Below are positions 33,812-56,286 of a stretch of 64,000 nt of DNA, piece after piece; within the stretch, counting starts at the first letter, position 1; every line of letters starts with the position of its first letter. Location of the stretch: the NCBI GenBank assembly GCA_965208575.1, contig CBDBOV010000005.1:224001-288000 (forward strand), read 5' to 3'. A program made the position numbers and the translations under genes. A model generated the notes under the pieces. That model saw only the letters and a list, made by a program, of their open reading frames with translations. It searched no databases and was not told the origin of the DNA. The stretch comes from Spirochaetia bacterium (GTDB lineage Bacteria > Spirochaetota > Spirochaetia > SZUA-6 > Bin103).

Positions 33812-36223
33812 CTACCGCGACGGTCCGGTGGCGGGAGCTGGTCCGTAGCCGTGGCACATGCGGTGGTGCGCCAGGCACGCGAGAACCAGGTTCTCCGGCT
33901 CCGGGCCGCCCCCCTCGGCAACCGGCAGCAGATGGTGGATCTGTAGCAGGTGGGACGAATTGCAGCGCCGACCGGTGAGCGGGTCCCGATAGCAGCAGCG
34001 CCCCCCGTCGCGCAGCCAGACGTGACGCCGGACAGCCGCTGGAATGGAGCGCCGCGGCGGCGCCCGGCGCGGGCCGAGCGGAACATCGCGGGTGCACCGC
34101 GGCGATGCTCCCCCCGGCGTGCCGCCCGCACCACGCGCAGGCGGCACGCCGCCGACCAACTTCGGCGCCGCAGTCGTTGCCGGCCGGATCGGCGTCGCAT
34201 CAGCGCCGTCGGTGGAGCCGCCGCCGACCAACTTCGGCGCCGCAGTCGTTGCCGGCCGGATCGGCGTCGCATCAGCGCCGTCGGTGGAGCCGCCGCCGGC
34301 CAACTTCGGCGCCGCAGTCGTTGCCGGCCGGATCCGCGTGGCACCAGCGCCGTCAGCGGAGCCGCCGCCGGCGCTCTGCCCCTCCGGCGCCGCAGCAACG
34401 GCGGGCGGGGCCGAAGCAGCGCCGCCTGCGCGGGTGCCAACTGCCCGCGCACCGCCCGCCGGGGCGGCGGGCGCAACGCCGCGCACCCCGGCAGCGTTGG
34501 GGGACGTCGCGGCCCGCGGCTGCTCGCCGGCGCCCGCGACCGCCGCCACGATCGAGGGTGTGCGGGTCCGCTCCCGCCGCGGCGATGCTGCCGCGCCGCC
34601 CGTACGCCCCCGCCTGCCACCGCCGCCACGCGGGTCGTACCGCGCCACCGCCTCGCGCACCAGGCGCGCCACCAGGTCCCCCCACGACATGCGCGGGTCG
34701 ACGTGCGACAGCAGGTTCTTCAGTTGGCGCAGTCCCTGCTCGCACTCCTGGTCGATGCTCACCTTCAACGTGTAGCGGTCCGGCGCCACCGCGCGCAGCG
34801 TGTCGCGCGGCGGCGCCACCTGCGGAGCGGCACTGGCCAGCAGGCCGGCGACCTGGCGCGTGGTCATGCCGACAGCCTGCTCAATCAACTCGCGCTGGCG
34901 CCGCGGGTGCAGCAGCGCGGCGGCCGACACCGGCCCGGCGGACCGCTCCGGGCCGGAACATGGTTCCGGGTTGGAACAAAGTTCCGGGTTCCGATCACCC
35001 CGCAACGGCGCCGGTGCGAGCGCAGCGGTGAGCCGCGGCTCCGATGCGGCCACGACCGGCAACGGTACCGGCTCGGCACCACTCGCCGGCGGCAGCAGTG
35101 GCGCGGCCGGGCCTTGGTACGATGCGGCCACGGCGGCACCGGGAGCGCGCAACGGTGCCGGACAGTCCCAGGCGGCGCCGCTCGACTCCCGCCGCGCCGG
35201 CAGCGCATCGGCATGCCGGGCGCCGAGGTGCTGCGCAGCCGCGTGGCTCGCCACCGGCACCACCGGCGTGGCCGCCGCCTCGTCACCTGCGAGCCCGGGC
35301 CGCGGTACACGCCCCGGCGCCGCAGGCGGTAGCGCGTGCAGCGTGGCGGCCGTCGAAGCCGGTGCAGCGCCCGAGGTGGCGGCACTCGAGTCCAATCGGC
35401 CCCGCGGCTGCGCACCCGCCGCTGCCGGGCGGGCACCGACTGCCTCCAAGTCGTCCAAAGATAGGCTGCAACGGTCGCTCACGGTATGCCGGGCCCCGCG
35501 GCCTCCGGCGGCACCGAGCGACCCCGCCGCCGGTTCGTCCGACGATGGCCTGCAACGGTCGCTCCCGGTTTGCCGGTCCCCGTGGCCTCGGGCGTCACCG
35601 AGCGACCCCGCCGCCGGTTCGTCCGACGATGGGCTGCAACGGTCGTTCCCGGTATGCCGGTCCCCGCGGCCCCCGGCGTCACCGAGCGACCGCGCCTCCT
35701 GGTCGACGGCGGCCACGCCGGGCGGCGCCGATGCCGTCACCGCCGCGGCACCGGCCATCCCCGCTCCCGACGCTTCGGCATCCTGGTCACCCGCTGCGCT
35801 CGGCGCACCAGGCAGCCCGTGCAGATCTTCGCAGCGCTCCGGATCGACGGTCGCGCTCTCTCTCCGGCACGTGCGCTCGGCCGCCCCAAACGCCGTCTCC
35901 AACTGCGCCGCCGACGTCACACTCAGCTCGCCGCTGTGCAGCATGGCCCGCACCCAGCCATGCCGCCGGCACAACCTCATGGTCTGAATACGCCGTTGCG
36001 CGGCCGCGTCGGTGAAGCGCAACTCCCGCACCGCGTAGTCGAACAGGCTCGAGAACCCGCGCCGCAGCGCCAGCCCACGTCGGTCAATCTCGTCGAGATG
36101 GTCCAGGATGTGCACCTCGAGGCCGCGCTCGTTGGCCGCCAGGCGCCTGGTCTGCTCCAGGAGCTGCTGATCACCGAGTGAGCTGAAGGGTCGTCTGGCG
36201 GTCCCGCCGGTCATGTTTGGCAT
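33812..36223 (-). CDS. HNH endonuclease with helical N-terminal (DUF222-like) domain and repeat-expanded linkers, copy 1
   Basis: N-term LLEQTRRLA..ILDHLDEIDRR..GFSSLFDYAV; C-term IPAAVRRHVWLRDGGRC..RC..LQIHH..GG..NL..CLAHH. Confidence 0.85.
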   Translation of the reverse strand: MPNMTGGTARRPFSSLGDQQLLEQTRRLAANERGLEVHILDHLDEIDRRGLALRRGFSSLFDYAVRELRFTDAAAQRRIQTMRLCRRHGWVRAMLHSGELSVTSAAQLETAFGAAERTCRRESATVDPERCEDLHGLPGAPSAAGDQDAEASGAGMAGAAAVTASAPPGVAAVDQEARSLGDAGGRGDRHTGNDRCSPSSDEPAAGSLGDARGHGDRQTGSDRCRPSSDEPAAGSLGAAGGRGARHTVSDRCSLSLDDLEAVGARPAAAGAQPRGRLDSSAATSGAAPASTAATLHALPPAAPGRVPRPGLAGDEAAATPVVPVASHAAAQHLGARHADALPARRESSGAAWDCPAPLRAPGAAVAASYQGPAAPLLPPASGAEPVPLPVVAASEPRLTAALAPAPLRGDRNPELCSNPEPCSGPERSAGPVSAAALLHPRRQRELIEQAVGMTTRQVAGLLASAAPQVAPPRDTLRAVAPDRYTLKVSIDQECEQGLRQLKNLLSHVDPRMSWGDLVARLVREAVARYDPRGGGGRRGRTGGAAASPRRERTRTPSIVAAVAGAGEQPRAATSPNAAGVRGVAPAAPAGGARAVGTRAGGAASAPPAVAAAPEGQSAGGGSADGAGATRIRPATTAAPKLAGGGSTDGADATPIRPATTAAPKLVGGGSTDGADATPIRPATTAAPKLVGGVPPARGAGGTPGGASPRCTRDVPLGPRRAPPRRSIPAAVRRHVWLRDGGRCCYRDPLTGRRCNSSHLLQIHHLLPVAEGGGPEPENLVLACLAHHRMCHGYGPAPATGPSR
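34151..34366 (-). repeat. 72-bp in-frame tandem repeat x3 in the HNH gene linker
   Basis: Units start at 34151, 34223, 34295 (plus strand); encode GGSTDGADATPIRPATTAAPKL. Confidence 0.9.
35466..35691 (-). repeat. 84-bp in-frame tandem repeat, about x3, in the HNH gene
   Basis: CTGCAACGGTCG at 35466, 35550, 35634. Confidence 0.88.
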
Positions 36224-36500
36224 GCCTTAAATATAACACTGACCTGTAGATAGCACTTTCTTTCAGGTCCTCGACCCGGTGCCGGCAGCGCCCGTGGGGC
36301 GCGAATTGGCGGCTCCAGGGGCACGCGGTCGGCCACTTGACGGTCGCAGACCATTGCCGGACTTCAAGGCCCGCCAGCGGCCTTCAGCGGCAGCGGAAAA
36401 GTGCGTCAACCCCTGCGCCCGATTTTCTGCAGTTATTTTGGTGCAGGTCGAACCCCGCGCACCGCGGCACGCAGGGACCCACCCCACGCTGCAAAAGATG
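36224..36500 (-). promoter_or_regulatory. Conserved non-coding upstream region of HNH copy 1
   Basis: Colinear blocks shared with 53992-54266; TATATT 6 nt before the ATG. Confidence 0.6.
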
Positions 36501-36698
36501 GTCCGACCCGCCCGGCACGTGGGCCTCACGAGACCGGCGCCCGCGGCAGCCCGCCCGGTCCCCCATCTGCTGCCGTGCCGACCGGAGCGGTGGGTTGAGA
36601 CCGGTGCGTGCCGACTTCGTCAACCGCCACCAACGCTTTCGCATTCGCACCGACACACACACGTTGCCGTGTACACTACCATCGTGTAGAATGATGCC

Positions 36699-36923
36699 AT
36701 GCGGAACATCACTCTGAGCGCCGACGAGGCGCTGATCCAGGCCGCGCGCAAGCGGGCGAGCGCCGAGAATACCACGTTGAACGGCGCATTTCGCCGCTGG
36801 CTCGCCAGCTATGCACGGCGTGACCGGCAGGCGGCCGACGCGATGGCGCTGATCGACGAGATCAGCAGTTACGCACGCACAGGCGGCCAGAAGTTCAGCC
36901 GGGACGAACTGAACGAGCGGTGA
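36699..36923 (+). CDS. Antitoxin (RHH-like)
   Basis: MRNITLSADEALIQAARKRA..TTLN..FR.WL..FSRDELNER; overlaps a PIN gene. Confidence 0.8.
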   Translation: MRNITLSADEALIQAARKRASAENTTLNGAFRRWLASYARRDRQAADAMALIDEISSYARTGGQKFSRDELNER

Positions 36924-37360
36924 GCTTCGTCGACTCGAACGTCTTCGTATATCTGTTCGACGAAGCCGATCCGGCAAAGCGGCGTCGCGCCCGGGAGATC
37001 GTGCGACTGTCGCTTTCGCAGAGCTGGGTCGTCAGCTACCAGGTAGTCCAGGAGACGCTCAACGTGATCACGCGCAAACTCAAGACCCCGGTGACGGCAG
37101 ACCATGCCCGCCGTTTCCTGAATGCCGTATTGCTGCCGTTGTGGTCGGTGGCGCCCAGTGCCGAGCTGTACCGCCGCGGTCTGGAAATCCAGTCCCGCTA
37201 CCAGTATGGGTTCTACGACGCACTGATCATCGCCGCCGCGCTCGAAGCATCCTGCACACGGTTGCTCAGCGAGGACATGCGGCACGGCCAGAGGATCGAC
37301 ACGCTGACTATCGAGAATCCGTTTCGGGGTCTACCGCGCAGTGCCGAATCGAATGACTGA
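36920..37360 (+). CDS. vapC: PIN-domain toxin
   Basis: FVDSNVFVY, SYQVVQE, FYDALIIAAAL, LLSEDMRHG..IENPF. Confidence 0.92.
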   Translation: MSFVDSNVFVYLFDEADPAKRRRAREIVRLSLSQSWVVSYQVVQETLNVITRKLKTPVTADHARRFLNAVLLPLWSVAPSAELYRRGLEIQSRYQYGFYDALIIAAALEASCTRLLSEDMRHGQRIDTLTIENPFRGLPRSAESND

Positions 37361-37681
37361 TCAATCTTGCGCCGAGGTCTCGAGTTGCACTCGACTGCGC
37401 TGCAGCGTGTCCTCGAACGCCGGGTCGCTGCGCAGCCACCGGAAGTCGTACTCCCGGCAGTGGCCGTCGCGGCTCAGGTCGTCCAGGTAGACGGCGGCCA
37501 GCTCACCGCGGGTGCAGCCCTCCGGCAGCGGCTCCCGCGGGGCGCCGCAGAGAAAGGCCAGCAGGTCGTCGAGGTAGCGCAACGCCTCGTTGCGGACTCG
37601 CAATTGCGAGAATGCCAGCAGCAGGTATTGCAGGGTCAGGAGCCGGGTCGGACTCTCGGTCCGGGGCAGGGTATCGGTCAT
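37361..37681 (-). CDS. Hypothetical protein (106 aa)
   Basis: GC-biased codon use, AAGGGG upstream, divergent from the peptidase; no family recognised. Confidence 0.55.
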   Translation of the reverse strand: MTDTLPRTESPTRLLTLQYLLLAFSQLRVRNEALRYLDDLLAFLCGAPREPLPEGCTRGELAAVYLDDLSRDGHCREYDFRWLRSDPAFEDTLQRSRVQLETSAQD

Positions 37682-37768
37682 CTTATCGCCCCCTTGACAA
37701 CAAGCTACCCCGGCCGCGCCGGGGCGCCGTGAATGTCCGGTAAACCTTCTGTTAAGGTGCGCTAACTC

Positions 37769-38863
37769 ATGATCGATACCGCGAGACTGCTCGACACGTT
37801 TCTGGCCATTCTGCGCATCGACAGCTACCACCCCAACGAGGATCCGGTGGTCGACGCGCTGCGTTCCAAGCTGCTGCACGCGGGAATGAGCCTTGAGGCC
37901 GACCCGCACCGCAACGTGCTCGGCTATTGGCCGGGATCGGGCGCCAAGGCTGACCACGAGCCGGTCCTGCTGTGCGCTCACACCGATACAGTTCGGCCCA
38001 CGCCCGGCATGGAGCCGGTGATCCGCGACGGAGCCGTGCACACCGACGGGTCGAGCGTGCTCGGGGCGGATGACAAGGCGGCGGTGGCGGCCATGGTGGA
38101 AGCGGTGGAGGCGATAGCCGCCGAGGGCGTTGCCCACCCGCCGGTGGAACTGCTGTTCACAGTCGGCGAGGATGTTGGGCATATCGGCTCGAAGGCGTTC
38201 GACGTAGCTCCGGTGCGCTCGCCGATGGCGTTCATTGCGGACGTCGACGGGCCGGTAGGGGCCGTGATTCTGGCCAGCCCGTGGTCGGAGACGCTGGTGG
38301 TCACCTTCCGCGGCCGCGCCGCGCACGCCGGCACGGAGCCGGAGTCGGGGCGCAGCGCGCTGCAGATGGCGGCGCGCGCCGTCGACCGGATGCGGCTCGG
38401 CCGCGTCGACGCGCACACCACCGCCAACGCCGGCGTGCTTACCGGAGGCGAGGAATCCAACATCGTCCCGGCGCACGCCGAGCTGAAGCTGCAGGTGCGC
38501 AGCCTCGATGAAGGCGCGTTCCGGGCCCACCGGGCGCACCTGCTGGAGTGCTGCCGGCAGGGTGCCGAGGCGTTCGGAGGCAGCGCGGAGGTGGAGTCGG
38601 TCAACTCGACCACCGGCTATCGCTTCGACCGCGACGAGCCGGTGGTGCAGCGGGCGCAGCGCGCGATCCGGGCGGCCGGGCTGACCCCGCGCCTCGCCAC
38701 CTCAGGCGGGACCAGCGACGCCAACGAGTTCAACGCCAAGGGCCTGCCCACGGCGGTCATCTCGGTCGGCTACCGCGACATCCACACCAACCAGGAATCA
38801 ATGCCTCTCGACGAGCTCGAGCGCCTGACCCACGTGTGCCGCGCCCTGATGCTCGGCGCGTGA
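37769..38863 (+). CDS. M20 family peptidase T-like metallohydrolase
   Basis: AHTDTV, LGADDKA, FTVGED (variant of EE), GRAAHAG, GGTSDAN, IHT. Confidence 0.9.
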   Translation: MIDTARLLDTFLAILRIDSYHPNEDPVVDALRSKLLHAGMSLEADPHRNVLGYWPGSGAKADHEPVLLCAHTDTVRPTPGMEPVIRDGAVHTDGSSVLGADDKAAVAAMVEAVEAIAAEGVAHPPVELLFTVGEDVGHIGSKAFDVAPVRSPMAFIADVDGPVGAVILASPWSETLVVTFRGRAAHAGTEPESGRSALQMAARAVDRMRLGRVDAHTTANAGVLTGGEESNIVPAHAELKLQVRSLDEGAFRAHRAHLLECCRQGAEAFGGSAEVESVNSTTGYRFDRDEPVVQRAQRAIRAAGLTPRLATSGGTSDANEFNAKGLPTAVISVGYRDIHTNQESMPLDELERLTHVCRALMLGA

Positions 38864-38907
38864 GGGTACCTTGTCCACTCCAGGGGTAGTGCTTAAACTC
38901 ACTATCG

Positions 38908-39605
38908 ATGTATCCGGCCGAGATGCAGTCAGTATTCGAAGCTGCCGCTCGCCTTCAGGAGTTAGTGCCCGACGCCGTACTGGTCGGAGGCACGGCGGCG
39001 GCTCACCATGCCGCACACCGAATGTCGCTTGGAGACGATCACGTCGTGGCCGACCTGCGGAGTCGCTTCGATGAGATCCTGGCTGATCTCGAGACGACCC
39101 AAGGCTGGATCACCGCCCGCATACAGCGGCCCGTACTGATCCTCGGCCGCCTCGACGGTGTGGAGACGGGCGTGAGGAATCTGATCCGGCGGCGGCCGCT
39201 GGAGGTGGAGCAGGCGCAAGTGGGACTTCGCGCTTTGCGGTGCCGACGCTGGCAGAGATCTGCCGCATCAAGGCGTGGCTCTGTCTGATCCGGAACGCGA
39301 CGCGAGACTATCTCGATTTTGCCGCGCTCGCGGCCCGGCTTGGCGAAGCCGCCACGGTGTCGGTGGTGATCACATTGGACGACTACTACGCCGATCAGAT
39401 CGGTCCCGGTGGCCGGCGGGTTGCCACCCAGGTTGCCAGGCAGCTCGCCGAGCCGCGCCCGGACGATCTGTCGAGTGTCGACCTGACCTCGTACCGCAAG
39501 CTGGACTCGCGCTGGCAGAACTGGCAGACGGTGGCCGACTGGTGCCGCCGAATCGCCGTCGGGGTACTCGATCAGGTAGCCAACGCACCGAAGGGCACTC
39601 CGTGA
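38908..39605 (+). pseudogene. Nucleotidyltransferase-like (AbiEii-type) toxin, frameshifted near 39230
   Basis: AVLVGGTAA..HRMS..DH in one frame; PTLAEICRIKAWL..RNATRDYLD in the next. Confidence 0.65.
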
Positions 39606-40117
39606 TTCACCGCCACTGCGAGGTGCCGCCGGACCTGCCGGTCGAGGAGTTGCCGGCGGTCGCGATCGCGGACCTCCTGGAGCGCGGCGACCTGCAGGAC
39701 TGGCAGCCGCTGGCCGGAGCCATCCGTCGCGACCCCTGGGGCGGTCTGGCCACCTCGGTGGCGCGCCTTCTCGACGCCTACCCGCGGTACGGCACCTCCC
39801 CGCTGTGGCGCGCCTGGATCGACCGCTGCCGGGCACGCACTCCGAAAGCCTCGCGGGCTGCGCAGGAGGCATCCGACGCTCAGCCGGTCTCTCTCGCCGC
39901 GCTCCGACGCGACCTTGGTCTCACCCAGGCGCAAGTCGCCCGCCGCCTGGGGATGACCCAGTCGGACGTCTCCAAGCTGGAACGGCGGGAGGACGCGCGC
40001 CTGTCCACCCTCCTGGCGTACGCCCGTGCCCTCGGGGGCCGTCTGCTCGTCACGTTCGACGACGGCGAGACGATGCGCGAGATCCGCCTCACGCCGCGAC
40101 CGGAAGAGAAGCGCTAA
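39602..40117 (+). CDS. XRE-family HTH protein with N-terminal extension (putative antitoxin)
   Basis: LRRDLGLTQAQVARRLGMTQSDVSKLERREDARLSTL..Y..ALGG; GTGA overlap with the upstream gene. Confidence 0.8.
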   Translation: MIHRHCEVPPDLPVEELPAVAIADLLERGDLQDWQPLAGAIRRDPWGGLATSVARLLDAYPRYGTSPLWRAWIDRCRARTPKASRAAQEASDAQPVSLAALRRDLGLTQAQVARRLGMTQSDVSKLERREDARLSTLLAYARALGGRLLVTFDDGETMREIRLTPRPEEKR

Positions 40118-40175
40118 CACCAGTACAAGCCATTCGGGGATGAGGGCTCGGAGGCGCGGAGATCCTGCCTTCGGG

Positions 40176-41281
40176 TCATGGTGTCCAGACGTGGCCGCGG
40201 CGACGGACTTCGTGCCAGTTGAGGGTGGCGCCGAGGCCGGCACCGGGCGGCAGGTGGAGGCGGCCTTGCTCGATTCGTTCGGCGGGGGTGAGCAGGACGG
40301 CGCGCCAGTCGGCTTCGTCGACGGCGTGTTCCAGGGAGAGCGCGCCCGGCACGGCGGCGGTGGCGTGGGCGCTCGCCAGCAGGGAGACCGGGCCCGACGG
40401 GCTGTGCAGGGAGAACCCGCCGCCGCCACTCCGCCGCAGTGCTTGATGTCCGGCATGATGATGGACACGGCGCCGGTGTCGAGCAGGCGGTCGAAGAAGG
40501 CAGCGCCGTAGCCGGACTCGCCGCCGGCCACCGGCAGCGTCACTTGCGATGCGATCGCCGCCAAGTCGGCTGCCGCGGTACGTGGCTGGACCGGCTCCTC
40601 GAACCAGCCGACGCCGAGCTGCGCCAGTTCGGCGGCGACCGCCGGCGCCGTCTCGGCCGTGAAGCGACTGTGGCAGTCGACCAGCAGGCGGCCCGCGGGG
40701 CCGATCGCATCGCGCGCCGCCCGCACCCGTGCCAACCCGGCGGCGGCCGCGGCCATGATGCGGTCCGGCGGGGATGTGACGGCAACCTCGTCGAACGGGG
40801 CGCACTTGAAGGAGCGGAATCCGGCACGCGCGGCCCGCTCAGCGGCGCGAGCGAAATCCGCCGGCGTTCGGTCGGTGGCGTGCAGGGCGCGGTTGATGTT
40901 GGCATACAGTTCCACGCTCTCGGTCGCATCGGCGCCCAGTGATCGATGCAGGGTCACGCCTGCCCGGGCTGCGTCGAGCTGCGCCACGGCCGTGCGCAGC
41001 GCGCTGACCGCGGTCGCCAGCACCACGTCGCGCCGCAAACGCTCGGGCGGCAGGCCTAGCAGCCGCTCGGCGACCTGCAACTCGCCAGCGGGCTCACGAT
41101 CCCGCAGCATCGCCACCAGCTCGGCGAGCACTTCGACAACCGCCATCGAGCGGTCTCCGAGCGTGATCTCGACCGCCGTGACGGCCCCCTCGCCATCGGC
41201 GAACTCCGCGAATACCCAGGTGGTGCGGGGGGTAGCGGTGACCGCCGCGAACCGACCGACGTACAGCCGGGCGCCGGTCAC
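40176..41281 (-). pseudogene. Mandelate racemase / galactonate dehydratase-like enolase, frameshifted by a short deletion near 40420
   Basis: LYANINR, FKCAPFD, VDCH, WFEEP, AGGE, MPDIKHCGG; then SLHSPSGP..GAGLG in another frame. Confidence 0.8.
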
Positions 41282-41489
41282 ACTACTCCTCGGCCGACGC
41301 CCGGTTGGCATACCATGAATTCCACCGCTCCGGTCGCTTCCTCCCGTTGCGCCCGTTGCGCCGGGTGCGAACGCCGAAAGCGGCAGCAATTATCGACCTA
41401 CCGAAATGATCGCTTGCTGCTTTTCGCGTTCGCACCGGTTGTGCCCGGCGGCTTGACACCGGTGATACCATAACAGATACCGTTGTACC

Positions 41490-41759
41490 ATGAGAATTAC
41501 CATTGATCGTGCCGGGCGGGTCGTGGTCCCGAAGCAGTTGCGGGACCGGTTCAATCTCGTGGCCGGAACGGAACTGGAGATCGAAGCTGTCGGCGACGGG
41601 TTGCAGCTTCGCAAGGTCGTGAGCGAACCGACGTTGATACGGAAAAAGGGATTCCTGGTTCATCACGGCACGAGTCCTTCCGGAATCGACATCGGTGAAT
41701 TCATCCGCGCCGAACGCGAGGCGCGCATTCGCCACATTGCCTCGGCGGGAACCGACTGA
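41490..41759 (+). CDS. AbrB/MazE family antitoxin
   Basis: ITIDRAGRVVVPKQLRDRFNL..G.ELEI. Confidence 0.9.
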   Translation: MRITIDRAGRVVVPKQLRDRFNLVAGTELEIEAVGDGLQLRKVVSEPTLIRKKGFLVHHGTSPSGIDIGEFIRAEREARIRHIASAGTD

Positions 41760-42190: not shown

Positions 42191-42198
42191 GCGGCGCC

Positions 42199-43653: not shown

Positions 43654-43707
43654 CCGCCCGCTTCTGATGCTTGCTCACCCGCCGGCAATGCGGATAGCGT
43701 GCGGCGC

Positions 43708-44694: not shown

Positions 44695-44771
44695 CCCTAC
44701 GCTGCCCACGGGCTGGGTGCTTCGGCGGTTCACGCATTGACCCTATCAGGACTATGGTACATGATCCACGT

Positions 44772-45385: not shown

Positions 45386-45498
45386 CCCCAGGTTGCGCCG
45401 CAAACGGCGCGCGTGATAGCTTCCCCGGCGATGTCGGCGGCGGACGACCGCGAACGAGTGGCGGCCGGCGGCGGCATACACGAACAGGAGGAACAGGA

Positions 45499-47178: not shown

Positions 47179-47281
47179 GGCGTTGTAACGACAGACGGAT
47201 CGCCGCCGCGGGCCGGCCGGCAGCCTGACCGGCCCGGTGGCCTGACCGGCCCGGCGGCGCATCCGCAAGACCCTCTCCGCA

Positions 47282-48181: not shown

Positions 48182-49092
48182 TGCCTGTGGTCGCCCGCAC
48201 CCTGGCCATGCGGCCGCGCCGCCCGCGGCTGTCGGTATTCTCGGTGATCAACGGCGTCGTGCTGTCGCTGGTCGCCGCCACCTGCCTGTTTCCGATGATC
48301 CACATGGTGGCGGTGTCGTTCTCGACGCGCGCCCTGGTGCTGGCTGGCGAGGTGGTGTTCTGGCCGCGCGGCTTCAACACCGCCTCCTACACCTGGGTGC
48401 TGCTGCAGGGCGGGTTCTGGACCTCGCTGTGGGTGTCGGCGCAGCGCATGGTGGCGGGGATCGCCATCAACGTGGTGCTGGTGCTGCTGCTGGCGTTCCC
48501 GCTGTCCAAGGAGAAGCACGAGTTCCGCGCCCGCGCCCTGTACGTGTGGTTTTTCTTCTTCACCATGCTGTTCGAGGGCGGACTGATCCCGCTGTACATG
48601 ACGGTTGCCACGCTGGGCCTGCTGGACACCATCTGGGCGCTGGTGCTGCCGCGCGGCGTGCAGGTGTTCCTGGTGCTGCTGATGCTCAACTTCTTCCGCC
48701 AGGTGCCGGGCGAGCTGCAGGACGCGGCGGAGATCGACGGCGCCGGCAAGTGGCGCATCCTGTGGCAGGTGTACGTGCCGGTGTCGCTGCCGGCGATCGC
48801 CACCATCACCCTGTTCTCCGGCGTGTTCCACTGGAATTCCTGGTTCGACGGGCTGATCTACGCCAACCACCCGGACCGCTACCCGGTGCAGACCTACCTG
48901 CAGATCCTGCTGCGCGGCGACATCCTGTCGCAGGCCACCTCGCTGAGCGAGATCTCGGAGATCTTCCACCTCTCCAACCGCACCGTGCGGTCGGCGTACA
49001 TCGTGATCGGCATCGTCCCGATCCTGGCCCTGTACCCATTCCTGCAGCGCTACTTCATCAAGGGCATCGTGATCGGCAGCGTCAAGGGATAA
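48181..49092 (+). CDS. Sugar ABC permease (LplC-like)
   Basis: GGLIPLY, DAAEIDGA, HWNSWF, YPFLQRYFIKGIVIGSVKG. Confidence 0.92.
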   Translation: MPVVARTLAMRPRRPRLSVFSVINGVVLSLVAATCLFPMIHMVAVSFSTRALVLAGEVVFWPRGFNTASYTWVLLQGGFWTSLWVSAQRMVAGIAINVVLVLLLAFPLSKEKHEFRARALYVWFFFFTMLFEGGLIPLYMTVATLGLLDTIWALVLPRGVQVFLVLLMLNFFRQVPGELQDAAEIDGAGKWRILWQVYVPVSLPAIATITLFSGVFHWNSWFDGLIYANHPDRYPVQTYLQILLRGDILSQATSLSEISEIFHLSNRTVRSAYIVIGIVPILALYPFLQRYFIKGIVIGSVKG

Positions 49093-49107
49093 CCCGCACG
49101 CCGGGGA

Positions 49108-49130
49108 TTATTGATACTAAGTTATCGTTA
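49108..49130 (+). promoter_or_regulatory. Putative Fur-family (Zur) operator
   Basis: AT-rich imperfect palindrome TTATTGATACTAAGTTATCGTTA upstream of a COG0523 gene. Confidence 0.5.
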
Positions 49131-49304
49131 GACATATACTTCGGGCGTGGCTGTGAGCCGGATTTCCGGTGCCAACCTGAGCAAGGGGCAGGAACTGCTG
49201 CACCGGCAGTGCTGGAACTGGGCCGCGACATCGAGCGCCGGGACGGCAACCTCCTGCTCGAGGCGGGCTTCCTCTCTCATTCCTGAACCCGTGGAGAAAT
49301 CGAA

Positions 49305-50519
49305 TTGAACGACCGACGCCTTCCCGTAACCGTGCTCTCCGGCTTCCTCGGAGCCGGCAAGACGACCTTGCTCAACCACGCGCTGCACAACCGCGAAGGC
49401 CGCCGCGTCGCGGTGATCGTCAACGACATGAGCGAGGTCAACGTCGACGCCGGGCTCGTACGCAGCGGCGGCGCCGAGCTCAACCGCGTCGACGAGCGGC
49501 TGATCGAGATGTCCAACGGCTGCATCTGCTGCACGTTGCGTGAAGACCTGCTCGACGAGGTCGCCCGCCTGGCGCGGGAACGCCGCTTCGACTACCTGCT
49601 GATCGAATCGACCGGTATCTCCGAGCCGCTCCCCGTCGCGGCCACCTTCGCCCTGTCGGACGAGCTTGGCGTCCAACTGGGCGAACTGGCGCGGTTGGAC
49701 ACGATGGTCACCGTCGTCGACGGCCCGCGCTTTCTGCGCGACTTCGGCTCCGGAGAAGACCTGCTCGATCGCGGGCTGGGGGTGGACGGCGACGACGACC
49801 GCGCCATCGCCGAGCTCCTCGTCGACCAGGTCGAGATCGCCAACGTTCTCGTGCTCAACAAGACCGACAAGATGAGCGGGCAAGAAGTCGCACGGTTGAC
49901 CGGGATTCTGCGCAAGCTCAACCAAACGGCCACGTTGGCCGAGGCGACCTACGGACAGATTCCGCTCGGCCTGATTTTCGATACGGGCCTGTTCGATTTC
50001 GAACGCGTCGAGCAAACGGCGGGTTGGCTGCAGGAGCTGCAGGGCGGCCACACGCCCGAAACCGAGGAGTACGGCATCGGCAGCTTCGTCTATCGGAGAC
50101 GCCGGCCCTTCCATCCGGCGCGGCTGGCGGCGGCCTTTGACGGTTACTTCGAGGGCGTGCTGCGCGCGAAGGGCGTGGTCTGGCTGGCCACCCGTCACGA
50201 CGTGGCCGGCGCGCTCTCGATCGCCGGAGACTCGCTGACCCTGGAGCCCGGCGGCCCCTGGTTCGCCGCGATGGACCCGGAAGAACTCGCCGACGACCCG
50301 GAGACCCGCGAGTGGGCCGGCCAGGTGTGGGAGTCCGAGTACGGCGACCGCCGTCAGGAGGTCGTCTTCATCGGAATCGAGATGCCGCGGGCAGCCATCG
50401 AGGCCGCGCTCGACGGCTGCCTGCTGACCGACGCCGAGATCGCCTCGGGCGCTTCCGAGTGGGCTTCGCTGGACGACCCGCTGCCGGCGTGGATGGCGCC
50501 GGAAGAGGACCAACCGTAG
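49305..50519 (+). CDS. COG0523 (CobW/ZigA/YciC-type) G3E GTPase metallochaperone
   Basis: [49 protein letters not shown]. Confidence 0.93.
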
Positions 50520-50619
50520 TACGCCCGCCTCCCGTTCCGCGTTCGCACCCTGCGCACCTGCCGCGTGCGGCCGGCGGTGCGCCTGTGCCACGAGCAGGCG
50601 CGCGCCTGCATCGTGGTGG

Positions 50620-51300
50620 TTACCTCGCGGGCCGGCTCCGCACCGCCTCCAGGTTCAACACCTGCATCGCCTCGTCTCCCATCGCCACGGCGTAGATCCC
50701 GCGCCGCGTCAGGTAGGTCACCATCTCTTCCGGTATGCTCAGCGACGAGAACGCCGGTACGATCGGCAACTTGCCGTACTCAGGAAAGTACAGCGCGAAC
50801 TCGCCGTTCCGCAGAAACTCCACGAACGCCCGCGCATCCTCGGAGCGAGGCGACGACTTGGTCTCGTTCAGCAGTACCGCCCGGGTCCCGACGTAGAGCG
50901 CGTCGAACTCCCGCGTCCGGGAGCGGTCGTCGCTCCGCGTCACGGTCTGGCGGGTCGTGAAGCGCACCAGATCGCCGCAGGCGAACACCTCACGTGCCAG
51001 GCGTCGGATGCTCGGCGCCACGATGTCTTCCACCACCGTACCCATCTTGTTGGCCAACTCACCCCACCGCTTGTTCATCTCCCGCCGCTCGCGGGCGGCT
51101 TCCTCGCGGTGACGGGCTCCCTCCTGCGCCTGACGCTCGACGATACGCTCAAGACGCGCAATAGACTCCTCGGTCCGTGCGACGGACTCGTTGGTCCGCG
51201 AGATAGACTCGTCGGTATTGGCCATGAAGCGGGCCAGGATGGTCTCCAGGTTGTCCACCCGCTCTTCGACCGCCTCTGTCCGTTGTGCAAGCGTAGCCAT
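50620..51300 (-). CDS. Coiled-coil protein with C-terminal PD-(D/E)XK-like domain (DUF3782-like)
   Basis: Heptad repeats TDESISR/TNESVAR/TEESIAR; WGELANKMGTVVED; REFDAL..LNETK. Confidence 0.75.
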   Translation of the reverse strand: MATLAQRTEAVEERVDNLETILARFMANTDESISRTNESVARTEESIARLERIVERQAQEGARHREEAARERREMNKRWGELANKMGTVVEDIVAPSIRRLAREVFACGDLVRFTTRQTVTRSDDRSRTREFDALYVGTRAVLLNETKSSPRSEDARAFVEFLRNGEFALYFPEYGKLPIVPAFSSLSIPEEMVTYLTRRGIYAVAMGDEAMQVLNLEAVRSRPAR

Positions 51301-51466
51301 CGCAAGAACCCAGTCTGCATCAGGGTAACCGCGGCGCGACTGCAGGGCAAGTGCCCGTGGTGCCCGGGAGTGCCCGGGAGTGAGTTGGGCCCGCACCGCT
51401 CGCCTGAAGGCCGTGGGCTATCGAAGTCGGCATCGTAAGGGATAGTATCTTCATGTGACCACTGGG

Positions 51467-52354
51467 ATGATCGAAAGAATAGCGGTGCGGCCGGCGCTGG
51501 CCGCGGATGACTGGGATCTGTTGAGCGAGGCGCCGCTGCCGGAACTGGACGGCGAGTACCCGCTTGGCGACGCGCAGGTGGAAGGGTTCTGGGAGAACGG
51601 CTTCATCGTCCTGGAAGAGGTGCTCGACCGGGACGAGATCAACGCCTACGGCGAGGCGATTCGCGACGTGGCGATGGCCCACTTCCGCGCACGCCGGCTG
51701 GCGCTGTCGTTCGGCGGCGCCTTTCTGCAGCAGCTCAACCTGCGCTACTGCTCCGACGCGGTGAGCCGCTTCGTGCTCAGCCCGCGCTTCGGACGCATCG
51801 CCAGCCGCCTGCTGCGCGCGCCGGCGGTGCGCCTGTACCACGAGCAGGCGCTGTTCAAGCCGCCCGGCGGCATCGACTCGCACTGGCACCAGGACCAGTT
51901 CTACTTCCCGTTCGACGACACCTTCACCATGGGGCTGTGGATGCCGCTGGTGGACTGCTCGCTGGACATGGGGCCGCTGCGCTTCGTGGCCGGCTCCCAC
52001 AAGTACGGCAACCTGGAGGGCATGTCGATCAGCGAGGAGTCGAAGCGCTTCTTCGACGACTTCGCGGAGCGCGAGGGGCTGGAAGTGGTGCAGGTGCCGG
52101 ATTTGAAGGCGGGCGATTGCTCGATCCACCTGGGCTGGACCGTGCACGGCGCGCCGGCCAACCGTTCCAACAAGATGCGCGAGGCGATGACCGCCAACTA
52201 CTTCCCGGACGGGGCGCGCATCACCGACATGTCGCGCTCGCCGGACGGGCTGCGCTTCGTCGGCGGCCTGGTGCCCGGCCAGATCGCCAACAGCGTGATG
52301 AACCCGATCGTGTACTCCGAGACGGCTACCGGGACCGAGGGAGAGACGAAATGA
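51467..52354 (+). CDS. Phytanoyl-CoA dioxygenase family (Fe/2OG) protein
   Basis: FWENGF, WHQD, LRFVAGSH, LKAGD..H..TVHGAPAN..R. Confidence 0.9.
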   Translation: MIERIAVRPALAADDWDLLSEAPLPELDGEYPLGDAQVEGFWENGFIVLEEVLDRDEINAYGEAIRDVAMAHFRARRLALSFGGAFLQQLNLRYCSDAVSRFVLSPRFGRIASRLLRAPAVRLYHEQALFKPPGGIDSHWHQDQFYFPFDDTFTMGLWMPLVDCSLDMGPLRFVAGSHKYGNLEGMSISEESKRFFDDFAEREGLEVVQVPDLKAGDCSIHLGWTVHGAPANRSNKMREAMTANYFPDGARITDMSRSPDGLRFVGGLVPGQIANSVMNPIVYSETATGTEGETK

Positions 52355-53892
52355 CCGAACAGTGGAGCGCCGAGCGCGCCAACGAGTGGTTCGCGTCGAT
52401 CCCGTTGCCGTTCGGCTGCAACTTCCTGCCGAGCACGGCGGTGAACAGCACCGAGATGTGGCAGACCGACACCTTCGACCCCGCCACCATCGAGCGCGAG
52501 CTGCAGTTGGCGGCCGGGCTCGGCTACAACACGGTGCGCGTGTTTCTGCAGTTCATGGTGTGGGAGACCGACCCGGCGGGCCACAACGAGCGCCTGGGGA
52601 CCTTCCTGCGGCTGGCCGACGCCGCCGGCATCACCATGATGCCGATCCTGTTCGACGACTGCCGCTTCGACGACCGCGACCCCTACCCCGGGCGCCAGGA
52701 CGACCCCAAGCCGGGGGTGCACAACAGCCGCTGGACGCCGAGCCCCGGCTACGCCACCGCCGACGACCCGGCGCGCTGGCCGCAACTGGAGGCGTACGTC
52801 AGCGACGTGGTCGGATCCTTCGGCAGCGACCGCCGGGTGCTGGTGTGGGACCTGTACAACGAGCCGGGCGGCGACCGCGCCAAGGAGAGCCTGCCGCTGG
52901 TGGAGGCGGCGTTCCGCTGGGCGCGCGCCGCCGACCCGCGGCAGCCGCTGACCGTGGGCTCCTTCTTCTGGCACGACTACATGACCGAGATCCGGCTGTG
53001 CGGCGAACGCAACTCCGACGTGGTGTCGTTCCACTGCTACGGCAACCTTCAGGAGATGCGCGGGCGCCTCGACGAACTGGCGGCGTACGGCCGCCCGCTG
53101 CTGTGCACCGAGTGGCTGGCCCGTCACCACGGCTCGAAGTTCGCCAGCCACCTGCCGCTGTTCCGTGAACGCAGCGTCGGCACCTACCAGTGGGGCCTGG
53201 CCGCCGGGCGCACCCAGACCTACCTGCACTGGTACACCCGCTACAGCCCGGAGCCGGACGGCGAGCCGCGCCTGTGGCTGCACGACGTGATCCGCCCCGA
53301 CGGCTCATTGTTCGACCCCGCCGAGGCCGCCGCCCTGCGCGACCACGCCGGCTGTGACCTGGCGCCCGAGCCGGTGCCGATGACCGGCGAACTGATGGCC
53401 GACCTGGAGCGGCGCGGGCTGATCATCCGCCTGCGCCCCGGCGGCCACGACCTCGCCGCGCAGCCCGGAGAGACCCTCGGCGAATCGATCTACGAGACCG
53501 CCGACCGCTACGGCCCGCACAAGCTGATCGCCGTGACCGTGAACCGCGCCGAGTTCGCCGCCTTCGGCACCCACCCCGGCAACGAAGAGTTCCTGCTGAT
53601 CGGCAACCCCGACAGCCAGCCGATGTACCTCGCCGTCGCCCTGTGCATGCGCCCCGAGTTCGAGGACAAGGTCAAGACCGGGCGCCTGACCGCCGCCGAC
53701 TTCGTGATGATCGAGTGCCGCTACAACGACCCCGAGGCCAGCTTCTTCGTGATGCGCGCCGGCGTCCCGCACGGCGAGGCGATCGTCCCGGCAGCCGGCA
53801 AGCCCGCCCCCAGCTTCTACGTCACCGAATCCCGCGACCTCCCCCTCGACACCATCGACCTCCGCAAATACCGCCTCCGCGTCGCCCGCTGA
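52351..53892 (+). CDS. GH5-like (clan GH-A) glycoside hydrolase fused to a C-terminal cupin-like domain
   Basis: GCNFLPSTAVN..EMW, WDLYNEP, SFHCY, CTEW; extra ~170 aa with THPGNEEF and GVPHGE. Confidence 0.8.
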   Translation: MTEQWSAERANEWFASIPLPFGCNFLPSTAVNSTEMWQTDTFDPATIERELQLAAGLGYNTVRVFLQFMVWETDPAGHNERLGTFLRLADAAGITMMPILFDDCRFDDRDPYPGRQDDPKPGVHNSRWTPSPGYATADDPARWPQLEAYVSDVVGSFGSDRRVLVWDLYNEPGGDRAKESLPLVEAAFRWARAADPRQPLTVGSFFWHDYMTEIRLCGERNSDVVSFHCYGNLQEMRGRLDELAAYGRPLLCTEWLARHHGSKFASHLPLFRERSVGTYQWGLAAGRTQTYLHWYTRYSPEPDGEPRLWLHDVIRPDGSLFDPAEAAALRDHAGCDLAPEPVPMTGELMADLERRGLIIRLRPGGHDLAAQPGETLGESIYETADRYGPHKLIAVTVNRAEFAAFGTHPGNEEFLLIGNPDSQPMYLAVALCMRPEFEDKVKTGRLTAADFVMIECRYNDPEASFFVMRAGVPHGEAIVPAAGKPAPSFYVTESRDLPLDTIDLRKYRLRVAR

Positions 53893-53895
53893 GCC

Positions 53896-53976
53896 ATGAC
53901 CAACACCATGACCTGCAAGCGCTACGCGTCCCAGGTCGAGTATGACGACGACGAAATCTTTGCGGGACGGATCGCG
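53896..53976 (+). pseudogene. HicB-family antitoxin N-terminal fragment
   Basis: MTNTMTCKRYASQVEYDDDEIFAGRIA resembles HicB starts (M.YKGY.A.IEYD..D.IF.GRI); similarity stops abruptly. Confidence 0.65.
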
Positions 53977-53985
53977 GTCGCACCC

Positions 53986-54266
53986 GGCACTGACCTTTGG
54001 TGCAGCCGGTGACGGGGTTCCACGGTCGCCTTGAAACGGTCGCGAACATGGAAAAAAATCGCTGAAAGCTGGGCGCGCCCCTTGACACGATTTTCGGGGC
54101 TCATAGCGGCTCGCCACAGCGCGCGGCGGCCCCTCCGACTGTCCGGAAACGACTTTGCCTCCATTGACGCGGCAGCACCCCGCTGAGCGGCCTGCAGGGC
54201 GTTGTCTCACCGCCACCGAGGACTCGGAGAAATCGGCTATTTTCAATCCCATGGTATACTTACGAT
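53986..54266 (+). promoter_or_regulatory. Conserved non-coding upstream region of HNH copy 2
   Basis: Colinear blocks shared with 36500-36224; TATACT 6 nt before the ATG. Confidence 0.6.
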
Positions 54267-56219
54267 ATGGATGCCGTGACCTCTCCCGCCCTCTGGTCCA
54301 CCGTCGCCGCGCTTCCCGATTACCTCCTGCTGGCGCAGACTCGGCAGCTCGCCCGTCATGAGCAGGCGCTGCAGATCCTGGTGCTCGACCACCTGCGCGA
54401 GATCGAGGCGCGCCGCCTCCACCTGACGCGCGGGTACGGCAGTTTGTTCGACTACGTCGTGCACGAACTGGGCTACACCGCGGCCGCCGCCTGGCGGCGG
54501 ATCAAGGCGATGCGGCTGTGCACCCAGACGGGAGCGGCGCGCGAGCTGCTGCAGGACGGCTCGCTGAACCTGAGCAACGCGGCGCAACTGCAGAACCTGT
54601 TCGAGCGCAGCGACCGCAGCCGCGGCCGCCCGCCGGGCGGTGGCGGTCGCGTTGGCGGCCTGGGCGGTGCGCCGCGCAATGACGGCGAGCCGGGAGCGCA
54701 GGCACCGGGGGAACCGGCACCGATGAGCGCCGGCGGGCGCGATCCGGCGCCACCGGCAGCCGGGCCGGCACCGGCAGCCGGGCCGGTGCTGGATGCGGCG
54801 GCGCGGGAGGAGCTGGTCCGGCAGGCGGCGGGCAAGAGCACGCGCGAAGTGCAGCAGATGCTGGCCGAGGTGGACCCGGAGCTGGCGCAGCCGAGCGACC
54901 GGATGCGCGCGCTCGGAGGCGGACGCTGGGAGCTGAAGGCGGCGGTCGACGCGGAGTGCCGGCACGGGTTGGAGAAGCTGCAGATGCTGCTGTCGCACAC
55001 GGATCCGCACCTGACGCTGGGCGGTCTGGTGGCGCGGCTGGTGCGCGACGGCTTGGACCGCTACGACCCGGAGCAGCCACCGCGCGCGCGGCGCACCGGC
55101 GGGCGCGCGGTGGCCGACGGCGCGCATTCTGCGAGCACGCCGGCGCGGCGCGACACGGAGCCTGTGCAGCGAAACGTGGGGCGCGCGAAGGGGAACGACA
55201 CGGGGTTGGTGGAGCGGAACGTGGCCCGCGCGGAGGGAGGCGGTGTCGAACGCCGGAGCGAAGTCGAGCGGGATGACGCATCGTTCGGGGCGGCGGTTCG
55301 GATTGGCACTGCCCGTCCTTCGGCGGCGAAGCGGGCTGCGGAAGCCGAGCACGGCAGCACGAAGTCGGCGCCGGTGGGAAGCAGCGGCGGGCACTCCACT
55401 TCGCCGGCGAAGCGCCACAGACAAACCGACCCCGGTCGCACTTCGCGGGCCGCACGGCGGGCCGACGGCGGGCGGGCCGCTTCGGCGGCGAAGCGGGATA
55501 CGGAGGCTGACGGCGGCAGCACGAAATCCCCGGCGGTGAAGCGAGCCGGGCAGGACGGGGACGCGCACATCGAGAGAGCGGAGCACCGTGGTGGCGCCGC
55601 CGCTTCGGCGCCGGGACGCCGTCACGAGGCAGAGCGCTCATGCGTGCAACAGACCGCGATGCGTGGCAACGGCGGACGTACTGCTTCGGTGACGAAGCGG
55701 CAAGGGCGAGCCGGCGGCGACGGTCGGGGCGCGGCGGAACCGCAACTCGATGCCGGCGAGCGCAACGCGTTGTGGGCGCCGGTGCGCACCGATGACGAAG
55801 GCGACCACTGCGCCGGCCCGCGGGATGCCGGTGAACGCAACGCGTTGTCGGCACCGGTGCGGGATCGCCACTGGTTTAGTTCGGCAGCGAAGCGGCTGGC
55901 GCATGCCGCCGGGCATGGCGCGGTGGGGCCGGCGGAGCGTTCGCCGGCCCTGGAGCGGCACCTCGCCGCGTTGCGCTGCTGCGGCGCGGTGCCGGGCTCC
56001 CGGTCACGGTACATCCCGGCCGCCGTGAGGCGGGAGGTGTGGCGCCGCGACCACGGTTGTTGCAGCTATGTCGACCGCCACAGCGGGCGGCGCTGCGGCT
56101 CCGTCTATCGGCTGGAGATCGACCACATCGTGCCGTTCGCGTTCGGCGGCGCCAACGAGCTGTCGAACCTCAGGCTTCGGTGCGCTGCGCATCACAAGTT
56201 GCGCCACGCTCAGCCCTAG
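54267..56219 (+). CDS. HNH endonuclease with helical N-terminal (DUF222-like) domain, copy 2
   Basis: LLAQTRQLA..VLDHLREIEARR..GYGSLFDYVV; SRYIPAAVRREVWRRD..C..RC..LEIDH..GG..NLRLRCAAHH. Confidence 0.88.
   Translation: MDAVTSPALWSTVAALPDYLLLAQTRQLARHEQALQILVLDHLREIEARRLHLTRGYGSLFDYVVHELGYTAAAAWRRIKAMRLCTQTGAARELLQDGSLNLSNAAQLQNLFERSDRSRGRPPGGGGRVGGLGGAPRNDGEPGAQAPGEPAPMSAGGRDPAPPAAGPAPAAGPVLDAAAREELVRQAAGKSTREVQQMLAEVDPELAQPSDRMRALGGGRWELKAAVDAECRHGLEKLQMLLSHTDPHLTLGGLVARLVRDGLDRYDPEQPPRARRTGGRAVADGAHSASTPARRDTEPVQRNVGRAKGNDTGLVERNVARAEGGGVERRSEVERDDASFGAAVRIGTARPSAAKRAAEAEHGSTKSAPVGSSGGHSTSPAKRHRQTDPGRTSRAARRADGGRAASAAKRDTEADGGSTKSPAVKRAGQDGDAHIERAEHRGGAAASAPGRRHEAERSCVQQTAMRGNGGRTASVTKRQGRAGGDGRGAAEPQLDAGERNALWAPVRTDDEGDHCAGPRDAGERNALSAPVRDRHWFSSAAKRLAHAAGHGAVGPAERSPALERHLAALRCCGAVPGSRSRYIPAAVRREVWRRDHGCCSYVDRHSGRRCGSVYRLEIDHIVPFAFGGANELSNLRLRCAAHHKLRHAQP
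55318..55894 (+). repeat. Dispersed palindromic 16-mer (CTTCG-N4-CGAAGCG) in the HNH linker, often 81 bp apart
   Basis: Copies at 55318, 55399, 55480, 55684, 55879; degenerate at 55528 and 55603. Confidence 0.75.
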
Positions 56220-56286
56220 CGTTGTCCAGGGCGCACGATCACGTTAAGGTCGGTGCCCGACGATCTTGAGTGATCAAGGAGAACTG

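Follow-up and report, generated by a model that had tools for sequence, protein, structure and literature searches.

HNH-nuclease genes of an uncultured Spirochaetia genome as probable cargo of a multicopy, non-autonomous ISKra4-like transposon

The window analysed here, i.e. the whole stretch of DNA under study, comprises 64,000 nucleotides (nt) of the genome of an uncultured member of the Spirochaetia (assembly GCA_965208575.1, contig CBDBOV010000005.1, positions 224,001 to 288,000 of the forward strand). This genome is 6.5 Mb in size, consists of 6 contigs and is designated G000; other G-numbers denote the genomes compared with it. Two genes coding for HNH nucleases are located in the window, each with a conserved non-coding region in front of its start codon. 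Copy 1 encodes protein P0001 and copy 2 encodes protein P0002; the corresponding types are called T1 and T2. We conclude that both genes are probably cargo of a multicopy, non-autonomous transposon derived from an ISKra4-like insertion sequence (IS), i.e. a mobile insertion cassette (MIC), and that the inner left arm of this element, promoter included, accounts for the conserved 5′ region. The features of both copies, including the left and right terminal inverted repeats (IRL, IRR) and the open reading frames (ORFs), are listed below; domain coordinates were computed from the residue ranges of the P0001/P0002 alignment.

33699–36651, minus strand: complete T1 element of 2,953 bp (IRR, right arm, HNH ORF, left arm, IRL)
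33699–33718, minus strand: T1 IRR; the plus strand reads GGTCCGAACGCCAGGAACGG
33812–36223, minus strand: T1 ORF, 803 aa (P0001), with N-terminal domain (35888–36187), middle domain (34631–34891) and HNH domain (33851–34051)
34147–34424, minus strand: 72-bp tandem repeats in the second low-complexity linker of the T1 ORF
35451–35696, minus strand: second tandem array with a period of 84 bp, in the first linker of the T1 ORF
36224–36453, minus strand: conserved inner left arm of T1 (−230 to −1), present in 11 of 11 T1 copies with a mean pairwise identity of 90.5%
36230–36238, minus strand: extended −10 element TGTTATATT, 6 nt before the ATG, presumably giving rise to a leaderless mRNA
36395–36413, minus strand: conserved block GGGGTTGACGCACTTTTCC in the distal part of the arm, with TTGAC at −186; putative operator or binding site, with two A-tract/GC direct repeats ahead of it
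36632–36651, minus strand: T1 IRL; the minus strand reads GGTGCGAATGCGAAAGCGTT and resembles the IRL of the resident 1,436-bp IS
33689–33697, no strand: low-coordinate copy of the imperfect target-site duplication, TACACTCGT
36656–36664, no strand: high-coordinate copy of the imperfect target-site duplication, CACACACGT
54026–56219, plus strand: T2 copy, truncated on either side and reduced to ORF and inner left arm; both inverted repeats lost
54026–54266, plus strand: remaining T2 left arm with TTGAC block (54078–54097) and extended −10 element TGGTATACT (54252–54260)
54267–56219, plus strand: T2 ORF, 650 aa (P0002), with N-terminal domain (54303–54602), middle domain (54810–55070) and HNH domain (56007–56207)

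Alignment of P0001 with P0002 yielded exactly three blocks with identities of 51/100, 43/87 and 37/67 (49–55%, E values from 3e-27 to 8e-20). The linkers between the blocks are of low complexity and, as had been stated in the preliminary description of the window, unrelated to each other. Since the linkers vary in length, the size of T1 ORFs ranges from 803 to 1015 aa. A search of G000 with P0002 resulted in 82 matches; full-length matches to the N-terminal domain were obtained for 11 copies of T1 and 13 copies of T2, in addition to fragments. The ORF extends through the HNH motif in all 11 T1 copies and in 10 of the 13 T2 copies.

The full copies were found to be elements of 2.1–3.6 kb with terminal inverted repeats (GGTGCGAACGCC...) and 8-bp target duplications. 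They share the order IRL, variable subterminal stretch, inner arm of about 230 nt, leaderless HNH ORF, about 110 nt, and IRR. The true ends are terminal inverted repeats of 20–24 nt, the left one located at −233 to −496 and the right one about 110–390 nt past the stop codon; the outer edge of the longer copies reads GGTGSGAAYGC..., the right end being its reverse complement. An IRL is present in 16 of the 24 G000 copies and an IRR in 14 of them (9 of the 11 T1 copies). A direct repeat of 8–10 nt abuts the ends in 8 of the 10 copies with two ends, and from these duplications outside the inverted repeats it follows that the whole unit moved as a DDE-type transposon. A group II intron was also considered for the left end, which reads GGTGCGAA, and was rejected: neither a reverse transcriptase (RT) domain nor an Rfam intron family was found, and the motif is the inverted repeat. 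Some copies are mosaic, e.g. one left arm, that of −378, occurs with either of two start regions, which is a sign of recombination among copies.

One of the 16 left ends, that of the T2 copy at C5:650108, became evident only when a nested IS was recognised. This IS of about 2.6 kb is located in the third codon of the T2 copy (L109, G000:C5:647000–650300, at about 516–3105). It has the ends GTAAACATTCG / GTAAGCATTCG, its own 8-bp duplication ATGAGTGA and a 542-aa ORF on the minus strand.

At the site of copy 1, the flanks in G006 (on G006:C44) are contiguous around a single CACACACGT and no element is present; these flanks are 94–96% identical to those of G000. The copy 1 element is likewise absent from G007 and G001. 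Absence from the orthologous G006 site indicates that copy 1 is a lineage-specific insertion. Empty-site alleles in relatives had been proposed as a check in the preliminary description, and the uninterrupted target in G006 is such an allele. With 24 copies, inverted repeats, duplications and this empty site, the earlier suggestion of a mobile, multicopy, nuclease-bearing element is confirmed.

Copy 2 is an old copy that has lost both ends by deletion. G006 has the same copy, with an identity of 97% in the left flank and of 94% in the element; there, the IRL GGTGCGAACGCCAAAAACGG stands directly before the sequence matching window position 54026 onward. Relative to this orthologue, the G000 copy has lost the IRL plus about 270 bp. 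On the right side, homology to other copies stops approximately at the stop codon. Based on the lost IRL and the right-hand limit of homology, copy 2 is an immobilised remnant with an intact ORF. No empty site of copy 2 was readable, G007 sharing the left flank only and G006 having the element. The preliminary description let copy 2 begin where a hicB fragment is cut off. The junction beside a 38-codon ORF fragment (53896–54009) is real; the label hicB is unverified, and the fragment has no match in Pfam.

The ends of the HNH elements are the same 22–24 nt as those of an IS resident in G000. This IS was found in ten full copies of 1,436 bp, two deletion derivatives of 568 bp and one miniature inverted-repeat transposable element (MITE) of 73 bp. 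Once the terminal G/C is assigned to the inverted repeat, 8-bp duplications are present at 10 full IS copies. The T2 IRL has one mismatch to the first 22–24 nt of the left end of the IS, and both T1 ends and the T2 IRR are related to the IS ends. The IS encodes a DDE transposase of 434 aa, which is 100% identical at the ten places. The MITE is located in the window between the two HNH genes and has an imperfect 8-bp duplication (GTTGCGCC / GTTGTGCC).

41364–41436, plus strand: 73-bp MITE of the same two inverted repeats, with the right end 16 nt upstream of a TTGACA box

No transposase gene is present within the HNH elements, whose sole long conserved ORF contains only an HNH domain according to Pfam and NCBIfam. 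Both databases also confirmed that the ORFs lack RuvC, RT and DDE domains. The preliminary description was thus correct in setting the genes apart from IscB/TnpB, but its exclusion of a classical IS does not extend to the ends, the 8-bp duplication and the target preference, all of which are those of the resident ISKra4-like IS. It had further regarded the element as self-propagating; in G000, movement in trans by a DDE transposase is most likely instead.

With respect to target preference, TTGA[CG] was observed 15–17 nt outside the end in 8 of 44 element or IS ends, compared to 146 of 50,000 random flanks. These eight are distributed over full and deleted IS copies (4 of 22 ends), the MITE (1 of 2) and T1 (3 of 12). 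The IRL of copy 1 is located 12 nt from the −35 box of a TTGCCG-17-TAGAAT promoter, which serves a small ORF and a PIN-domain gene. The ISKra4 group is part of the prokaryotic Mutator-like transposons termed p-MULT 4, and several of its elements are reported to insert upstream of sigma-A promoters with the promoter 13–17 bp from the end (PMC3942029).

A second IS of G000 is ISKra4/ISLre2-like, has a length of 1,535 bp, encodes a 478-aa transposase and is bounded by the ends GGGTGCATTC... and 8-bp duplications. It occurs at G000:C4:509000–511300 (L105) and at 9 other places, and some of its copies adjoin copies of the 1,436-bp IS. As a partner of T1 and T2, this IS478 was rejected because its ends (GGGTGCATTC, 8-bp duplication) differ.

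The upstream DNA of both genes had been described as colinear. Global alignment of the region from −270 to −1 of the two window copies resulted in z = 5.8, and none of 500 dinucleotide shuffles reached the score. For the T1 and T2 consensus sequences (−230 to −1), z was 9.0, or 5.1 without the last 60 nt. The reported positions of TTGAC at −186 and −185 were found again (window 36409 in copy 1, 54082 in copy 2), and the identical spacing of GAGGAC...GCTAT...TATAnTTA-N4-ATG is kept in nearly all copies. A supposedly conserved block CTTT..TGCAGC at about −270 proved to be a chance match located outside the element in copy 2: homology of copy 2 to other T2 copies begins at 54026, and the stretch before it is an unrelated neighbouring gene, as seen in comparison with G006. 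The conserved region is therefore about 230–240 nt long and not 270 nt. All-against-all BLAST of the G000 copies showed about 217–230 nt upstream of the ATG to be common to all copies, with subsets reaching up to −430. Blocks kept by both T1 and T2 are two A-tract/GC direct repeats (about 12–14 nt apart), TTGAC...TTTTC, GGGCG..CACCG and GAGGAC.

A TAnnnT hexamer is located 5–8 nt before the start in 20 of 24 G000 copies, 18 of which have a TG extension (TGnTAnnnT), and at the same distance in 66 of 73 loci of other Spirochaetia, 44 of these with a TT-type −35 box at 16–18 nt; the counts are partly circular because the start-picking rule favoured such hexamers. The chosen starts are supported by the alignment of the N-terminal protein sequences. 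An extended −10 element directly before the ATG suggests a leaderless mRNA starting at or next to the ATG, in agreement with the earlier impression that the genes are leaderless. We infer that the last 45 nt or so of the arm act as the promoter for this mRNA. For the distal blocks, a role as binding sites of the element's own DNA-binding protein, i.e. as autoregulatory operators, appears most likely; they may alternatively be relics of subterminal transposon sequence. The conserved region is not the end of the element, as which it had been interpreted, since the inverted repeats lie further out; the binding-site role suggested earlier is plausible for its distal blocks.

Within P0001 and P0002, Pfam detected HNH alone (PF01844, E values 4e-6 and 1.1e-4). 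An AlphaFold (AF2) model was obtained for P0003, a compact homologue of 441 aa, based on an alignment of 27 sequences. It consists of three folded parts (pLDDT 80–98) with disordered linkers in between. Comparison by VIA-align gave leads for all three: residues ~32–188 resemble the DNA-binding domains of ParB, KorB, Spo0J, VirB and SopB (Z 4.9–6.7, ~91–101 residues aligned; Z 5.4–6.7 for ParB, KorB and Spo0J), residues ~202–258 resemble ribbon-helix-helix (RHH) proteins, among them NikR, TraM, PutA and antitoxins (Z 4.6–5.6), and residues ~363–438 resemble the HNH domains of IscB, McrA and Cap5 (Z 5.5–6.8). Foldseek found no match of the model in the PDB at E ≤ 1e-3. By sequence, the HNH domain is nearest to the En domain of a group II intron maturase (6me0, E 6.3e-5). 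The modelled combination of a ParB/KorB-like helix-turn-helix (HTH) domain, an RHH domain and an HNH domain most likely represents a sequence-specific DNA-binding nuclease or nickase.

The paralogues are under purifying selection, with dN/dS values over the first 120–130 codons of 0.16 (T1), 0.25 (T2), 0.18 (G010) and 0.17 (G011), which suggests that the protein serves the persistence of the element. In a 50%-clustered library of 1.84 billion proteins, 2,301 cluster representatives matched the DNA-binding half at E ≤ 1e-10, a number that rises to 7,635 at E ≤ 1e-3. A word-index search yielded 1,865 homologues; among the 120 matches listed, none has a name and HNH is the sole precomputed Pfam domain. 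PADLOC returned no family for three proteins at E ≤ 0.01. Pfam DUF222 (PF02720) was not found in P0001, P0002 or P0003 and matched 2 of the 27 aligned members below threshold (best E 0.051). In an Atlas feature search, the N-terminal half adjoins a cluster named DUF222 (score 0.94), a weak lead.

Within the same family-level group, 20 of 23 further genomes contain the protein family, with tens of matches each, whereas none of 17 genomes from seven other families of the order does (E ≤ 1e-10). The loci of relatives stem from metagenome-assembled genomes (MAGs) of uncultured Spirochaetia, apart from 6 of 80 loci (30–36% identity) in Bdellovibrionales MAGs. The HNH elements of G010 have different ends (GGCGCACTTCCAA... 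/ ...TTGGAAATGCGCC). Among its 28 loci, the left end was found in 16, the right end in 18 and both in 11, several with duplications of 8–9 nt. These ends match a different resident IS, the 478-aa transposase of which passes the ISKra4 cut-off (216–218 bits compared to 205). The cassette thus appears to be paired with whichever ISKra4-type IS is resident. Beyond the promoter, the upstream region is not conserved in G010 or G011.

Taken together, the probable course of events would be as follows. The 434-aa transposase of the 1,436-bp IS most likely moves the HNH elements in trans. Transcription would start at or next to the ATG, driven by the last 45 nt or so of the inner left arm, and the distal blocks of the arm may bind the element's own protein, resulting in autoregulation. 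The nuclease would serve the persistence of the element, e.g. by break-induced copying between copies.

Several observations weigh against this interpretation. Both inverted repeats are kept in just 10 of the 24 copies, and the TTGAC-at-16 pattern was found in 0 of 8 T2 ends. Compared with the ISKra4 model NF033572, the 434-aa transposase scores 198.8 bits (E 1.6e-58), which is 6 bits under the curated cut-off of 205. The IS copies are identical, whereas the HNH copies show a synonymous divergence (dS) of about 0.2; hence, the HNH insertions predate the current IS burst. Within a subfamily, the divergence of the arm is close to that of third codon positions (90.5% vs 87.6% in T1, 81.0% vs 78.1% in T2). 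The structural Z values of the protein model are middling (below 8) and possibly generic, although several members of one fold family recur for each part, so that they serve as leads only. We infer both the operator role of the distal blocks and, as most likely, the mobilisation in trans. A further difficulty is posed by G011, which is assembled in one contig, is 96% complete and holds about 34 copies. In its main subfamily, 11 loci lack any common inverted repeat, and their homology spans from −36/−41 to about 100–130 nt past the HNH domain. With dS at just 0.20, arms lost from these loci should still be traceable. Not a single 11-mer occurs in 4 or more of the 11 upstream flanks, and no ISKra4-family match was found in G011 at E ≤ 1e-3. 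These loci indicate that the cassette can be multicopy without an ISKra4-type vehicle.

The gene-plus-promoter repeats of G011 without inverted repeats are unexplained by the IS model. They are the main support for the view that the cassette of promoter and HNH gene is itself mobile by nuclease-driven copying, with ISKra4-type inverted repeats as a secondary vehicle in some genomes. We consider this view unlikely, although it would account for the 11 loci of G011 (dS 0.20, dN/dS 0.17, no ISKra4 transposase found), for the many HNH matches without a close transposase in G012 and G017, and for the occurrence of the same cassette family with different ends in G000 and G010. In G010, the left arm contains an IRR-like sequence (about −100 to −88), so that the arm resembles a separate MITE beside the cassette. 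The mosaic copies also fit, as does purifying selection on dozens of redundant copies if the protein is needed for the spread of its own copy. In M. tuberculosis, the REP13E12 (DUF222-HNH) repeats are among the loci most hit by gene conversion, according to passages of a preprint (PMC13061034). Gene conversion requires homology, however, and alone cannot found copies at new loci. The target duplications outside the inverted repeats in G000 argue for DDE-type movement of the whole unit, and at the G011 junctions neither a target duplication nor a conserved target was seen in a search that was not exhaustive. To our knowledge, there is no HNH-only transposase. A related idea, which we hold to be rather improbable, is that the HTH-RHH-HNH protein, as a sequence-specific nuclease carried by the transposon, would be the protein-guided equivalent of TnpB/IscB: by cutting empty or sister sites, it would have its own cassette copied into them through homing or gene conversion. 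If true, this would explain the selection on redundant copies, the mosaic arms and the re-pairing with resident IS ends, and also the spread without inverted repeats where no such transposase was found.

Two further explanations can be assigned very little weight. The preliminary description had suggested that the conserved region may encode a small RNA; such a small or guide RNA would act together with the nuclease, much as the omega-RNA does in IscB or HEARO. A conserved non-coding stretch upstream of an HNH gene within a transposon fits this idea, as do the best structural match of the HNH domain, the IscB HNH (Z 6.8), and a weak local NCBIfam match (22 bits, E ~1e-4) to the HNH region of IscB. 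Yet Rfam gave no match in the whole window at the gathering threshold, and a lax scan at E ≤ 10, which covered the upstream region of copy 1 alone (36150–36900), returned only chance microRNA and small nucleolar RNA rows. The RNAalifold consensus of 23 copies is weak on either strand (−11 to −12 kcal/mol over ~235 columns), and z-scores of single-sequence folding are unremarkable (−1.0 and +1.06). Together with the lack of conservation past the promoter in G010 and G011 and a protein that has no RuvC and carries two protein-type DNA-binding domains, this makes an RNA function very improbable. In metatranscriptome run X20, contigs match all three conserved coding domains with a likeness of 88–99% and leave 53904–54206 uncovered, a region that is covered by runs X1 and X4; as the X20 contigs come from relatives and from a single run, no weight is given to the gap or to expression. 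An IscB/TnpB (OMEGA) system was rejected as a candidate, as RuvC and a structured RNA are absent and NCBIfam guided_IscB matches the HNH part only, with 22 bits compared to a cut-off of 175. An ordinary, immobile family of host paralogues with a conserved promoter would be consistent with the many copies lacking one or both inverted repeats and with ORFs under purifying selection. It is refuted by the 8-bp duplications and the empty site. The inverted repeats also speak against it; moreover, copy flanks are unrelated, ends are common to the IS and the MITE, and 20 of 23 other genomes of the same family hold tens of copies each, compared to 0 of 17 genomes from other families of the order (E ≤ 1e-10).

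Several neighbouring features were observed. The T1 IRL directly adjoins the leaderless-type promoter of a gene pair at 36699–37357, which consists of a 74-aa ORF and an overlapping PIN-domain ORF (PF01850, E 3.2e-15) in the order of a vapBC-type toxin-antitoxin pair. The stretch of ~730 bp with this pair is present in G006 and absent from G007 and G001. On the other side of copy 1, an amidase gene is located at 32173–33681 on the minus strand (PF01425, E 1.5e-85); it is absent from the orthologous region of G006 and tandemly duplicated in G003. A solitary inverted-repeat-like sequence, GGTGCGAACGCGGAACGG, at 50532–50549 (minus strand) has no partner in the window at up to 3 mismatches and is either a remnant end or a chance occurrence. 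Another high-copy IS is located at ~57545–59450, a stretch that recurs at 93–100% identity in at least 26 other places of G000; its 586-aa ORF (57689–59446) has a DDE_Tnp_1 domain (E 9.9e-15). Parts of 53500–56500 were found in runs X1, X4 and X20, labelled as sponge, coral-reef and marine metagenome. Contigs of X4 (sponge metagenome) match this region with few differences, e.g. 3 of 137 and 3 of 177 letters. The run matches suggest a sponge-associated organism.

By mapping the ends, target duplication, target preference and partner transposase, an anonymous family of 'HNH endonucleases' is turned into defined cargo of a mobile element. In the examined genomes of this Spirochaetia family, tens of HNH element insertions per genome were found. 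As the elements insert beside promoters, they probably shape gene expression and genome plasticity. The results raise the question why a non-autonomous DDE transposon retains a sequence-specific nuclease under selection, in parallel to TnpB/IscB and without RNA, and the second question by what route the cassette became multicopy in G011. New site-specific nickases may be obtained from the compact HTH-RHH-HNH architecture.

Compared to known systems, the elements share with the ISKra4 group, as treated in the relevant passages of PMC3942029, partner transposases matching NF033572 (above the cut-off in G010, just below it in G000), duplications of 8 bp and a fixed short distance upstream of −35-like boxes, but differ in that they contain no transposase. 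Four ISKra4 elements carrying extra genes without known function are mentioned in the same source (Guerillot et al. 2014, PMC3942029). Among the titles and abstract openings listed, a literature search revealed no HNH-carrying, ISKra4-derived cassette; the supplementary list of ISKra4 extra genes in PMC3942029 lies outside this search. IS200/IS605 and IS607 elements carry TnpB/IscB nucleases (bioRxiv 10.1101/2023.03.14.532601) and thus likewise bear a nuclease other than the transposase, the HNH domain studied here being structurally closest to that of IscB (Z 6.8). Unlike TnpB/IscB, the HNH element has no RuvC or structured RNA and possesses DDE-type ends with target duplications; its target recognition would be accomplished by the predicted HTH and RHH domains instead of a guide RNA. 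REP13E12 is a multicopy repeat of M. tuberculosis encoding a DUF222-HNH protein of undefined function (passages of PMC10589994 and PMC13061034), and frequent gene conversion among these repeats is reported in the latter, a preprint. The features in common, as far as these passages describe them, are the multicopy state and a helical N-terminal domain combined with a C-terminal HNH domain. The HNH family differs in falling below the Pfam DUF222 threshold, and in the passages on REP13E12 neither inverted repeats nor a partner IS is mentioned.

Free-standing HNH homing endonuclease genes of phages are small, have their own promoter and behave selfishly. The HNH gene studied here resembles them in its own promoter and selfish behaviour; its copies are, however, located at unrelated chromosomal sites, have transposon ends and duplications, and adjoin no cognate target gene. 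MICs and MITEs are non-autonomous IS derivatives, an example being MIC231 of IS231 from Bacillus cereus. As in MICs, the inverted repeats of a resident IS surround transposase-free DNA, the duplication has the same length, the passenger is coding and movement is presumed to occur in trans. The 73-bp MITE and the 568-bp deletion derivatives of the same IS in G000 add to the likeness with MICs and MITEs. The difference from MICs lies in the passenger, a gene that has a consensus leaderless promoter of its own and codes for an HNH nuclease with three predicted domains, including DNA-binding ones. This passenger is under purifying selection in tens of copies; it is bounded by the ends of one IS in G000 and of another in G010, and by no such ends in a third genome.

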